From: Stylophora pistillata
Taxonomy: Eukaryota
Length of the DNA stretch: 64,000 nucleotides
Assembly: GCF_002571385.2 (NCBI RefSeq)
Contig: NW_019217795.1
Location: forward strand, 524,767-588,766
Direction: 5' to 3'
Below are positions 1 through 4,805 of the stretch, in pieces. The notes beneath the pieces were generated by a model. It saw only the letters and a list, made by a program, of their open reading frames with translations. It searched no databases and was not told the origin of the DNA. Each line of letters begins with the position of its first letter. Position 1 is the stretch's first letter. Made by a program: the position numbers and the translations under genes.

Positions 1-1272
1 AGCGCGAGAGGGGAGTCACACTCGCCAAGTGCATGGTCTCCGCTCGTCTTGAAAACGCAATTAAATGGCACCCGTTTTGCGAGCGACTCAAGTTTGAAAC
101 AGCCGAACCCTTTTAACAGAGGTAATGTCCCACTTGGAGCATATGATGAAAATTTTCTCAGAAATTTGTTCTGGATTTAAAACCGTAAAAAAAATAGTAT
201 TCAATGATCGAATCCTTGGTTTCTTATGCGAAATTCAACTAAACTCGCAAGCGGGATTGAAGCGTAACTTCCCCTCAGATTTTCATTACACAATCAACAA
301 AACAGATAATGAGAAGAGGCAAGTTCATCAGCTTTAGGGTGTCATCTTGATCTAACACCAAATTCTTTTAGCTAACATAAAAAAATGTACAGCATTTTGA
401 AAGGAGACTAAAGAATCATATTTAAGGACTTCACGAGAAATTTGCAAGAGAACCATATAATTCTGATCTCAGTCATTTGAAATTTACTATGAAATTGTGA
501 CACTGACCGCGCCTTCAGATTCGTAATGATTATTTGAACTGAGTGGAGTGCAATTTGGTCTGTAATCACACGCGTGATTTCAAAATCAAACGACGCGGCG
601 GCCGGCGGGGCCCATATCAAACTTACGTTTAACATCTACCTGTACAGACTTTCGTGACATGTCACGCAGTCCGGGGCCAGTCAAAAACACACTAATTTTC
701 GAACATTTTCTTCGTTTTCGCGTATTCCACTTGAATCGCTATCTTTCTTACCCTCAGTTTATAAAACTATCGTAAATAAGCTTTCTATAACGCTGTATTT
801 GAAGGTAATCATGAAAATATTTCGTTCGGGCTTTTTTAAACTTTTGGTTAACAATTCAGACATTTCGAAGAGGGGTGTTTATGCTAGATGCAAACACTGG
901 CCATAGAGTCTGGGGCTATAACTCTAGAGCGCATGCACAGAACTGGTCATTACCGCGAAATACGAAAAGAAGAATAAATTTGGCGCAATTTGATGTATAA
1001 TACATGAATTTTGGATATTGTTTGGGTTCGGGAAATGGGACTCGATGTTTACGCACTGGTGATTTTGTCCTCGCTGCCTCTTCTCTCGGTGGCCGTAGAT
1101 GCGCAAAACGATTTTGCCGAAGAAACAAGTGGTCCGAAAGGGGAAAAATTGCCTTGGTTTAATTACGAAATAAACAAGTAACATTGCGTTAATCGAAGTT
1201 TACTTCAACCCGTTTCTTTTCTTCTTTTTTTTTAATTTTGTTTTCATCAAACTGATTTTTTTTTTTTAACAG

Positions 1273-3220
1273 CTATCTCATATATTCCCTGTCGAAGAAG
1301 CCTGACCAAGAGCCGAACGACGAAAGTGCCGATTCTCTGATTGCAGGAATCGTGGAAAAAATCTTGAGGGAATCTGAGATCAGCGGGGTTGTGTTAAATT
1401 CCAGAATTCTCAACGTCTTCAGGAAAAAGATTTCTCTCCTCCACTCAGCGTTCAAGAAAGCTTCAAAAAGTGGGGAGAATAGTGTAAAGAAGCTGATTGA
1501 TTAATGGAAGGCGAAAAACTACTCCTTCAAAATTCTTTTTCATGAGCTTGAAAAAAAAACTCATTGATTGAGGAAAACCAACAGCTCCGTGGACAGAAAA
1601 GGAAAGCTAAACTGGATTTAGCCGTAGAGCAGGCAAAGAAATTAAAAATTGAGCAGAAACTCGAAAATATCATTTGGGACTCGGAAAACAGAAAAGAACA
1701 ATACAAAGAAAAATTCAAGAGATTAGCGAAGAAAGCAGCAAGAATACAAAAAAAAGAGGGACAAAGAGGTCCAATCAAGAATAAAAAATTCACGGAGTAC
1801 ACCAAACAGCACCAAGCAGGGATAAGGCGAACATTCAAAGAAGACTGCCACTCAGCGCTATCATTTTTAGGCCTGTATGATTTTGTTGCCACTATGGTGG
1901 AGATATTCAATAACGACACCCAGCAATATGAAACTATTTCATTGATAGAAGAGGGAGAATTTCAACTACTAGAAACTGAGCCAAAGAACTGACAAATTTA
2001 ATACCTCTAATGAAGCTTAGAATGAGTTGGCCATAAAGTGTAAAGACATGCCCACAAAATATAAAATATGTAAACATCTAGATAGGCTAAATTCCAATTG
2101 GAATCTAAAAAAAAAACACCAGGGGAGGCAGAGGGAATACAGATTTCTTTCAGGGACAGTCTTGGAGAACAGATACAAAGGCTGTAGAAAAATTGAGTAT
2201 TGGACGAGGCTACTACTATTAAAGTAAAGATCAGTGGTGATGGTACCAACATTGGGAAGGGGCTTAAACTTGAAAAAATGTAACATACACAATTTTGAAT
2301 GAAAAGGATGCAGCAGTGAATGAAAAAGGAAACTATGTTCTAGCAATAATTAAGGCAACAGAGAACTATAACAATCTTAGAGAAAGCCTTGCTGATCAAA
2401 ACAATGAAATGTCCAATTTAAAAGAAATAACTGTAAATAATCATAAGTATTAGCATTGAGTATTTTTTAGGAGGAGACTGGAAGTTTCTAGACTGTGTCT
2501 GTGGTCTAGGAGCTGCAAATCAAAATTTTGCCTGTATTTGGTGTAAGTGCCCAAGACATGAAAGGTTTGACATCAGTAAAAAGTGGTCTTTAACTGACAA
2601 ATCTCTTGGGGCAAGAGATTCACAAGAAATAGGTAAGCATGCAAAATCTAAACAATATAATTGTAAAACCAATCCATTATTTAATTTTATTCTTATTGAC
2701 CATGTAATAATCGATACACTACATTTGCTTTTGAGAATACCTAATAATTTAATTGAACTTCTTATCAGGGAACTTCGCAGAAAAGATGCGATTGACAAGG
2801 TACCTACTTTTTCAAATGGTTTTTGTCAAAATAGGTATAGACACGTGGCTGGGTACGAAAAATTTGTAAAAGAGCTTAAGGAATTAATTTTGAGTGGAAA
2901 ATTGATAAGGACACTAAGAAGTTGGAGTACAGAGATCTTACTGGACCTGAAAAACTCTTGCTCTTTCAACACAAATTTTCATGCACGACTATTAGAAGGT
3001 CATGTTGCAGATAAGCTGCAAGCCCTATGGGGTAATTTCATGGATATTATTGGTGACCTCAAACTAGATTATACTACTGATGACACAATCTCTATCCTTG
3101 AAGAAAAGATAAAAAAATGGTTTCAAACATTTCTTGACATTTACCATGCAAGCAAAAGATGTGACACCTTATATGCATTCTTTGTATGCTCACGTGCCTG
3201 AATTTTTAAAGCTGTACCAC
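1273..3220 (+). pseudogene. Frameshifted DDE transposase with RAG1-core-like motifs
   Basis: Motifs in order across frameshifts and stops: KVKISGDG (2221), EYFLGGDWKFL (~2458), CIWCKC (~2533), IIDTLHLLLRI (~2707), VTPYMHSLYAHVPEFLKLY (~3161). They parallel RAG1 SCDG / GYDEK / CTLC / DALH / TNYFHKTLAHVPE. Splice acceptor at 1272. The third catalytic (E) motif is missing. Confidence 0.75.
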
Positions 3221-3950
3221 TTCTTCTGCCGCAACTAAAACTCATTTCAAATTTAGCACAACAAAAGATAAACAGGTTTACAAAGCAGCTACCTTTCATG
3301 TATAATGGTCCATAATTATTCATAACACTCAGTAAAGGATAAAAAATCAACACTTACTTTTACTCACGTGTGTTATCGTCTTGGGGATGAATGAGCCAAG
3401 TGCTTCAATGTCTTTGTACAAACTTCGTGCAACATGTCCTGACATCTGTTCTGGGTGTTAGGATTTGGGGTCATATTCCATTGTTCTGTCATTCCATCGT
3501 TCTGTCATTCCAGCATTCTGGCATTCCATCGTTCCGGCTTTTAGGATTTGGAGTCATATTCCGGCATCCCAGCATTCCATCGTTCTAGGTTTTAGGGTCG
3601 CCCTTATGGAACAATCTAACTATCAGTAAAGACGTTAACTTAAATGAGTTTAAGGCAATTGCTCTTGCAGCCATCAAGTCATTCAATTGACATCTATCAA
3701 TTGTTTTAATCTTTTAGTTTAGGAATAGTTATAGCTATATTTATATATTCAATATGTTTTATTGTTGTTTTTATATTTATTTATTTGTAATTCATAGATC
3801 ATATTTATATCAAGAGTTTTAACCAATTGTTGTTCATTACTTAGTGCCATTGTTTTTGAAATTAGTATTGTTATTTTTTGATATTATTTTGAAACTCCTA
3901 ATATAGTTTTTTTTTGCTGTCTTAGGAGTATACTTATTAAAGATAAAAGA

Positions 3951-4151
3951 TTAAAGGTCAAATTTCTCACTGTACCCTTTAAAATGAATTTTAACCATGT
4001 TTCTCGCTTTGTCAACCTGTGTTATCTCCACTGGATAAGTACTTTTATCCGTAATTTTTATTTTCTTGCATTTCTTGGTCTTAACTTCGGCGAATTCGTC
4101 AATAAATCTCTTCGGAATCTTACCCTCCCGCTTGGCTCTGTTGACCGCCAT
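3951..4151 (-). pseudogene. Truncated chromo-barrel/Tudor-knot domain ORF, likely second gene of the transposon
   Basis: Start context AAAATGGCG at 4151. Translation ends YPVEITQVDKARNMVKIHFKGYSEKFD, matching the Y-x-x-x-I...vkiH(F/Y)xG(W/Y)xxxxDEW pattern but cut off before EW by AT-rich sequence. Confidence 0.55.
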
Positions 4152-4694
4152 TTTGAAACTTGGCGCTCTTTGCATATTTAATTAACTGCGCATGTCAGGT
4201 GAGTAATATGGAGGCTTGGGACCAATTAGTCAATGTTCAGCTTTATGTGGGATAAGTATGATTTCAGACCCAAATTGCACAAAAAGAAATTCAATTACCA
4301 CTTTTTTACATCCATTTTGAAATCACAAAATTCAGTTTCCAGGTTTTTTTGGCTGAATTGTTTCCAAAATGGCGACGTGCGTGCGCGCGAAGTTTTTACT
4401 ACCTTAGTCAGGAATTTTTGGGAGAACTATTTCCTCCTCCGAATATGAAAATATGGTAAATTGCTAATCTCTTTATCTACTACAACTAATTGTTTTCACC
4501 AGAATTTTCCTCTTTCAACCTAAGTGGCCTGCAACAGGATGATGCGCTACGTTTTGCGACAAGTGCGTTTTTCATTTTGACACAGTAATGGCGACACGCC
4601 TTTTACAAGTTCTATTGACGATTGGAATTTATCGAATTAATGCAACCCCAAAACTTGAAATTAATTTCCAAGAATGACGGAGTTGTATATCTGA

Positions 4695-4805
4695 GCTCCC
4701 GTAGCACAGTTGGTTAGAGCGTCGTACTTATAAGCAGTACAGGCGTTGTCCGCCGAGGATGCTAAAGTAATGCGAAGGTCGGGGGTTCGAGACCCCTCGG
4801 GAGCA
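4695..4805 (+). tRNA. tRNA-Ile(UAU) with a 37-nt intron (4733-4769)
   Basis: Acceptor stem GCTCCCG/CGGGAGC, anticodon arm TCGTA-CTTATA^A-TGCGA, T-arm GGGGG-TTCGAGA-CCCCT, A and B boxes, canonical 37/38 intron position, T5 Pol III terminator at ~4813. Confidence 0.92.

Follow-up and report, generated by a model that had tools for sequence, protein, structure and literature searches.

A two-gene DNA transposon family with a predicted RAG1/Transib-fold transposase and a convergent barrel-protein gene, represented by a dead copy in Stylophora pistillata

Transposases of the RAG and Transib type act as dimers by cut-and-paste, and the length of the target duplication that they leave reflects the stagger of strand transfer. 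Transibs have been described as single-gene elements (PMC4411706), and the CMCT clade comprises EnSpm/CACTA, Mirage, Chapaev, Plavaka, ESTA, and Lanisha (Kojima 2025, PMC12730594). The RAG1/Transib tree of Tao et al. (2022, PMC9435367) is rooted on a branch of bacterial Transibs; 42 bacterial Transib-like proteins were reported there, among them CthTransib_0091, from the 4,563-nt contig FXLE01000091.1. Here we describe an element at positions 613 to approximately 4262 of a 64,000-nt stretch of DNA from the coral Stylophora pistillata (contig NW_019217795.1, positions 524,767 to 588,766), hereafter called the window. This dead copy belongs to a family of two-gene DNA transposons, in which a gene for a transposase with a predicted RAG1/Transib fold converges on a gene for a small barrel protein, hereafter called the partner. 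We consider this account probable as a whole; within it, the partner likely reads methylated histone tails and would act as a cofactor that steers the transposase.

A convergent gene pair and its terminal repeats

With the longest open piece of the window transposase as the query, 35 relatives with up to 74% identity were found among 2022 candidates, and the named members of their clusters are uncharacterized proteins of 806 to 812 amino acids from Pocillopora verrucosa and S. pistillata. A scan of metagenome contigs yielded 87 transposase relatives, the best 80 of which were analyzed. The partner gene was found downstream on the opposite strand, and thus convergent, in 52 of the 59 loci with 500 nt or more of sequence beyond the transposase; two of the 52, L045 and L069, are weak cases (E, ~1e-4). 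The long upstream flanks contained no partner (0/25). The partner profile was built from nine intact partners that are themselves among the 52 positive loci. When loci were grouped at 80% DNA identity, the partner was present in 15 of 19 groups, and both genes lie inside common terminal repeats.

The two genes also diverge together. In a set of 16 loci selected for overlap, the distances between transposases are strongly correlated with those between partners (Mantel test, Spearman 0.91; P = 0.0003), and the well-supported groups in the two trees mostly agree. The ratio of nonsynonymous to synonymous substitution rates (dN/dS) of the partner is 0.12, 0.35, 0.22, and 0.16 in four pairs of relatives, a fifth pair being saturated, and 0.36 and 0.57 in pairs that include the window copy. 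These ratios indicate that the partner is under purifying selection. The idea that the two open reading frames (ORFs) are adjacent by chance nesting, or that the second is passive cargo, draws on the heavy rearrangement of the window copy and the nested repeats that it holds, but it is hardly credible given the constant side, strand, and order of the partner, its absence upstream, the common terminal repeats, the congruent distances, and dN/dS values well below 1.

At an E value of ≤1e-5, the partner has 185 relatives, among which are named proteins of Pocillopora, Stylophora, and Actinia. A profile comparison revealed no similarity between partner and transposase. Family members were absent from 23 candidates on viral contigs (0/23) and from the plasmids and phages scanned. 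The two-gene layout and a 1-bp target duplication (see below) were not found described in the literature searched, a search that lay outside Repbase, Dfam, and subscription journals.

The AlphaFold2 model of the transposase (predicted local distance difference test [pLDDT], 75) matched RAG1 in Foldseek with an E value of 6.5e-15, and BbRAG1L and HzTransib with 3.4e-11. In VIA, RAG1 was the best match (Z score, 26.2; root mean square deviation [rmsd], 3.5 Å over 440 residues), followed by BbRAG1L (23.9) and HzTransib (22.8), with the next matches at 12.8 (P element) and 8.9 (Hermes). The transposase is thus predicted to have the RAG1/Transib fold. The DDE triad is conserved across members (D383, 52/52; D461, 52/52; E718, 45/47), as are a CxxC motif (C480, 52/52; C483, 51/52) and an HxxxxH motif (H693, 46/47; H698, 45/47) between the triad's second D and its E. 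A Cx2Cx3GHx4C tail motif was found in 39 of 52 members, or 39 of the 40 that extend that far.

Sequence similarity to RAG1 is low, at 13 to 15% identity, and identities within the family range from 25 to 100%. The Pfam RAG1 model matched 2 of 52 members (best E value, 1.3e-4), a PDB profile search with the transposase profile returned no RAG1 or Transib chain, and no match to the En/Spm or Plavaka Pfam models was found among the families listed. Searches of Pfam and of PDB sequences with the broken pieces from the window gave nothing useful, with a single match at an E value of 0.04. Chapaev transposases carry an N-terminal zinc finger; no Cys/His cluster and no Cys/His-rich RING region were found before the core of the transposase described here. 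A distant relative of GC-rich type, P0035 (926 amino acids; from JGI), has core motifs in common with the family along with a SAP domain (E, 0.0014), and it may extend the family beyond animals.

The length of the target duplication was examined in one subfamily, which is represented by 3.8-kb copies of 95 to 99.6% identity in long gene-poor contigs (21% ORF cover) and has the ends CATATCAAAAC..GTTTTGATATG. Among the 11 distinct insertions in which both tips are present, 10 have the same single base on both sides (permutation P = 0.0007; with the rearranged L078 excluded, 0.002); in this set, duplications of 2, 4, or 5 bp were never found and one of 3 bp was found once. The count omits L029, which occupies the same site as L024, as well as L043 and L047, which have damaged right tips, and single-ended copies. 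Insertion L025 lies in repeated sequence with five empty paralogues. Each of these is shorter than the joined flanks at the insertion point, and in four the difference is a single T. Two other explanations were rejected. In two cases the left flank is the same as the right flank of another copy, which raised the idea that chimeric assembly masks a 5-bp duplication, but the 1-bp match holds within contigs, and precisely one base is missing from the empty paralogous sites. Those sites, which represent one insertion only, were also the ground for rejecting blunt insertion between two identical bases.

Duplications of 2 to 5 bp are reported for the CMCT clade (PMC12730594), and duplications of 2, 3, and 5 bp are reported for Transib (2026 preprint, 10.64898/2026.08.26.747230). 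According to the same preprint, both duplication length and terminal heptamer are labile within Transib, so the absence of a 5-bp duplication and of a CACAATG-like heptamer weighs little against Transib ancestry. A 1-bp duplication lies outside the 2- to 5-bp range of the clade and implies a different strand-transfer geometry on a fold with a solved 5-bp geometry.

The partner protein and its possible role

Intact partners are about 237 amino acids long. The model (pLDDT, 80) has a basic, low-confidence N terminus, a small barrel (residues ~35 to 81), and an alpha/beta domain (~91 to 235). The partner profile matched the MBT protein L3MBTL3 (E, 7e-7), MRG701 (1.2e-3), and the Tudor domain of PHF20 (4e-3), and the best VIA match of the barrel model was PHF20L1 Tudor1 (rmsd, 2.0 over 45 residues; Z score, 4.7). 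Atlas gave a lead-level Tudor-knot/MBT match at 0.80 for the barrel. For the C-terminal domain there was no usable Atlas match and no clear match in Foldseek or VIA (best Z score, 4.2), an absence that is not proof of a new fold. Positions 40, 58, and 61 are aromatic in 79 of 83 sequences, and together with position 65 in 60 of 83; the window copy keeps all four. Profile and model together assign the partner to the Tudor/MBT/chromo-barrel proteins, with conserved aromatic residues. The partner is not RAG2: the protein has 237 amino acids and consists of a small barrel plus an alpha/beta domain, with no kelch propeller and no PHD finger; neither a PHD cysteine pattern in the alignment nor a propeller was found.

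The first-pass annotation of the window, made from its letters alone, had suggested a two-gene transposon family of the Transib/RAG/Chapaev clan with a chromo-barrel ORF convergent on the transposase. A family of this layout in the RAG1/Transib clan is borne out by the linkage of the ORFs in 52 of 59 loci within common terminal repeats, the codivergence, the purifying selection, the RAG1 fold, and the barrel match, the Tudor/MBT/chromo-barrel profile and structure matches of the second ORF being modest in score. Of the three outcomes that it named as refuting, none was found as far as the searches reached: the ORFs are linked in other copies, the second ORF matches barrels, and this architecture did not turn up in the literature searched. 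The transposase lineage itself is already present in PMC9435367 as a "bacterial Transib," without the second gene.

We lean toward methyl-lysine as the ligand of the barrel. If the barrel instead binds DNA or RNA, the partner could be an end-binding or structural subunit of the transpososome. The profile matches do include knotted Tudor/chromo barrels (Esa1 and MYST1) and the Pfam RNA-binding knot family, the N terminus is basic, and the fourth presumed cage position varies. However, the best matches for the barrel are MBT and PHF20-type Tudor domains, and aromatic residues persist at three positions in 79 of 83 sequences even though the proteins fall to 22% identity to the reference, so that we regard a nucleic acid ligand as improbable.

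By the reading that we favor, a transposase dimer would excise the element and join its ends to the target with a one-base stagger, as extrapolated from RAG/Transib chemistry, while the partner barrel would read methylated histone tails and steer the transposase to chosen chromatin. The use of histone-mark reading for target choice or transposase recruitment is put forward tentatively, at somewhat less than even weight. The same family could also carry a partner that has no part in target choice and protects or regulates the element, by binding silenced transposon chromatin or by controlling transcription. No result of this analysis connects the partner with the transposase protein or with sites of insertion, it is encoded separately, from a start of its own that lies about 100 nt from the right end, and its C-terminal domain has no fold assignment. 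Nothing speaks directly against a regulatory partner, and strict coinheritance fits both readings; we consider this alternative possible though rather unlikely.

Several observations weigh against the reading of the partner as a histone-reading cofactor in a two-gene family. No partner was found in 7 of 59 loci, most of which have 3'-broken transposases, and L074 and L075 may be a one-gene or diverged branch. The Mantel correlation could be due in part to common host ancestry. Matches of the barrel are modest: Pfam MBT matched 5 of 11 members (best E value, 0.0034) and Tudor-knot 2 of 11 (0.0017), Foldseek gave no match to the partner model at an E value of ≤0.001, and the best VIA Z score is just 4.7. 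The assignment of positions 40, 58, 61, and 65 as cage residues follows MRG15 and MSL3 and is putative; the fourth is nonaromatic in 21 of 83 sequences, and some barrels of this type bind RNA, to judge by the name of a Pfam family. As for the 1-bp duplication, it is established for one subfamily only, L070 does not match it, and L015 (c|a), the one complete element of another subfamily, has no matching base.

The family is a second convergent two-gene transposon of predicted RAG1 fold, with a partner other than RAG2. It makes a standing question testable, namely whether a cofactor that reads chromatin arrived together with the transposon or arose as an innovation of vertebrates, and since intact gene pairs exist (L023 and P0036-type copies), the system can be assayed.

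Structure and damage of the window copy

The true ends of the element are CATATCAAA..TTTGATATG. The features of the window copy and of the host repeat around it are as follows.

534..612, no strand: host palindromic repeat, left arm and GC-rich loop, outside the element; depth 4811, loose ends at 534
613..625, plus strand: left terminal inverted repeat CATATCAAACTTA; alignments of L004 and L012 begin at 613; reverse complement of the right end of L040
1035..1177, plus strand: transposase exon 1; begins at ATG 1035 and stays open over the splice; corresponds to the P0036 N terminus
1178..1272, plus strand: phase-2 GT-AG intron, spliced out in contigs of 2 of 4 runs (X19 and X2)
1273..3219, plus strand: transposase exon 2, frameshifted; last ~105 residues gone, including the catalytic Glu (intact relatives, 806 to 812 amino acids)
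3220..3956, no strand: unrelated repeat-rich DNA of 737 nt that replaces 1,118 nt of the element; breakpoints placed against L001
3957..4175, minus strand: 5' third of the partner gene, encoding the basic N terminus and the greater part of the Tudor/chromo barrel and breaking off ahead of the conserved EW
4253..4262, minus strand: what is left of the right terminal inverted repeat, which is missing its final three bases; overlaps the start of the host right arm
4254..4324, no strand: host palindromic repeat, right arm; ~20 nt next to the element gone, loose ends at 4324

The transposase motifs pointed out by the first-pass annotation were recovered on the plus strand (SGDG at 2233, GGDWK at 2470, CIWC at 2533, DTLH at 2713, TPYMH at 3164, and HVPE at 3191), as was the barrel motif KIHFKGY at 3992 on the minus strand. 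The transposase is indeed broken, with eight frame switches downstream of the intron, and its match to intact relatives stops at 3219, short of the catalytic Glu. The convergent ORF is genuine, but its apparent end in a barrel pattern is only an effect of truncation, as intact copies continue for about 165 residues. The remaining partner piece has 74% identity to L001 over 69 amino acids, with an ATG at 4175 and another eight codons on. According to the comparison with L001, the loss of 1,118 nt took away the 3' end of each gene together with the spacer between them; the DNA that replaced it has a depth peak of 1333 at 3324 to 3467 and tandem units of 8 nt at 3448 to 3596. Exon 1, the intron, and this replacement of 1,118 nt by 737 nt had been absent from the annotation.

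The position of the window intron is the same in L003 and in the L023 subfamily. A strict intron pattern was recovered in 6 of the 22 sequences to which it was applied, and some of the other 16 are already spliced or cut short. Exon 1 encodes a hydrophobic, signal-peptide-like leader after the sole upstream Met, as also seen in P0036, P0055, P0127, L009, and L015. The leader is kept across subfamilies of 46 to 65% identity, while the L023 subfamily has a short leader without the hydrophobic stretch. As judged from its sequence, such a leader is odd for a nuclear enzyme and may serve to divert or limit the protein. In L011 (positions 1 to 85), a different leader of 84 nt is spliced to the same exon 2 acceptor, which suggests an alternative first exon.

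Public runs labeled as coral contain about half of the sequence words of the window, in keeping with a coral host. Contigs from poly(A) RNA runs closely match the broken copy (1273 to 3895), including its private junction 3184-3895. The dead copy may therefore still be transcribed, although DNA carry-over is possible, and these contigs hold no information on expression level or strand. Contigs of run X18 over 636 to 3213 have a depth of ~70, compared with ~10 in unique flank, and are free of several of the frameshifts of the window copy; this suggests several better-preserved copies in the same species, depth not being equal to copy number.

The element lies in the loop of a very abundant palindromic host repeat. 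In contigs of public runs the host repeat has a depth of 4811 versus ~100 over the element, and its empty form joins 591 to 4257 (also 590 to 4254) with about 35 letters between. The inverted arms that had been reported around the element are present, at approximately 531 to 571 and 4256 to 4297, and belong to this host repeat. The left arm alone has no unusual fold (z, -0.3). The CCCA...TGGG ends that had been proposed at 611 and 4251 did not hold up: relatives align from 613 and to approximately 4262, the real terminal repeat CATATCAAACTTA ruled them out, and the CCCA/TGGG match is due to chance. On the right side, L001 and L040 stay aligned to ~4262, and CATATCAAACTTA is complete in L040. 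In the window copy, the right repeat is missing its final three bases and has become fused with the host repeat, so that no target duplication is visible there. The right junction falls in a common AAGT(A/T)TGAT stretch, which suggests a later deletion. The copy was inserted into the palindromic host repeat, its right tip and the 3' end of each of its genes are gone, and it is unable to move alone.

The terminal sequence CATATCAAAC (613 to 625) is similar to CACTWMCAAAC, the consensus for protostome RAGL, except that its A-run lies one base nearer the tip. Other mobile elements are nested in copies of the family: a 249-nt inverted-repeat element (L025, 4429 to 4676, and L027, 10095 to 10342), a 3.2-kb CCC..GGG element with TTAA flanks (L030, 4582 to 7783), and a 173-nt CAC..GTG element (L046, 942 to 1113). 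Beyond the element, the window contains at 4695 to 4805 a tRNA gene with the anticodon TAT and an intron of ~38 nt (Rfam E value, 9e-9), which was missed by ARAGORN.

CthTransib_0091 and comparison with known systems

One relative of the partner, P0297, is SMN01620.1 (SPONL_2199), which is deposited in an uncultured "Ca. Thioglobus" assembly on a 4,563-nt contig, FXLE01000091.1, the contig from which CthTransib_0091 was taken. As read by eye from the printed contig, its gene, at 1220 to 1939, is convergent with the transposase and has 58% identity to the L023 partner, and the family repeat CATATCAAAACC is found at 1097. In PMC9435367, a different 3' repeat is marked near 401 of this contig and the transposase alone is reported; the terms "Tudor" and "chromo" do not occur in the searched part of its supplement. 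By eye, CthTransib_0091 and the L023 transposase have long motif runs in common throughout the core, and a GT-AG intron of ~65 nt lies upstream of the annotated coding part. Removal of this intron yields the junction IN-N-YYLWSISHPGK as in L023, and position and phase are those of the window intron; the published gene model for CthTransib_0091 likewise begins with an intron (PMC9435367). Judged by its motif string, terminal repeat, intron site, and partner gene on the same contig, CthTransib_0091 belongs to the same family as the window element.

The simplest reading, and in our view very likely the correct one, is that the contig is eukaryotic DNA in a bacterial assembly. A truly bacterial CthTransib_0091, resident in or transferred to a SUP05 bacterium, would mean that the family spans domains; the contig was deposited in a bacterial assembly and was taken as bacterial by PMC9435367. 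This origin is highly improbable, since the contig has the intron site of the window and L023 in the same place and phase, carries the terminal repeat and the partner gene of the family, is only 4.6 kb long, and has a coverage of 5.4 according to its name. In addition, L023, with its 58% identical partner, occurs in multiple copies in contigs poor in genes (21% ORF cover). When 185,579 prokaryote genomes were scanned with FLGGDWKF, a motif present in CthTransib_0091, a single weak match of 43 amino acids and no convincing family member came up, and plasmids and phages gave none. A second bacterial entry, CthTransib_0066, has similar motifs and is more distant, three of the 42 entries having been examined, so the claim of PMC9435367 is weakened and not disproved. 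A sequence used to argue for bacterial descent of RAG is nevertheless a family member with an intron site and a chromatin-type partner, and the claim therefore needs reexamination.

A bolder and rather unlikely proposal is that the family is a deep eukaryotic branch of RAG1/Transib that was mistaken for the bacterial root, with a RAG1-fold transposase and its own histone-mark reader arranged convergently like RAG1 and RAG2, and with one-base-stagger integration. If true, chromatin-guided two-subunit transposition is older than RAG2 or arose twice, and a bacterial origin of RAG loses a principal support.

Among described systems, RAGL/ProtoRAG elements likewise have two convergent genes inside short terminal repeats, and they have in common with the family the RAG1 fold (Z score of the window-family model to BbRAG1L, 23.9), a terminal repeat with an A-run, and the tail motif Cx2Cx3GHx4C, described as defining the CTT* of RAG1L (PMC7204232). 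However, the RAGL partner is RAG2L, with a six-bladed kelch propeller and a PHD finger, in contrast to the 237-residue barrel and alpha/beta protein of the family. RAGL elements leave 5-bp duplications, whereas 1 bp was found in one subfamily of the present family (5 bp in 0 of 11), and they start with CAC, whereas most family ends start with CAT. RAG1 and the family transposase are only 13 to 15% identical, and the latter is without the Cys/His-rich RING region before the core. By the features tested, the family is not a member of RAGL.

Transib, as represented by HzTransib (PDB 6pqx), has in common with the family the fold (Z score, 22.8), a DDE domain with CxxC and HxxxxH, and CA..TG ends. 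Transibs have a single gene and 5-bp duplications (2 to 3 bp in some newer members), whereas the family has two genes and, in one subfamily, a 1-bp duplication, and the CACAATG-like terminal heptamer of Transib is absent from the family ends. The CMCT clade is characterized by a DDE domain with C(2)C and H(3-4)H and by 5'-CA..TG-3' termini, all of which are found in the family; its duplications of 2 to 5 bp differ from the 1 bp found in 10 of 11 insertions of one subfamily, and structure and tail motif lean to the RAG1/Transib side. The two-gene family is real, a variant within the RAG1/Transib/CMCT kind with a partner other than RAG2.

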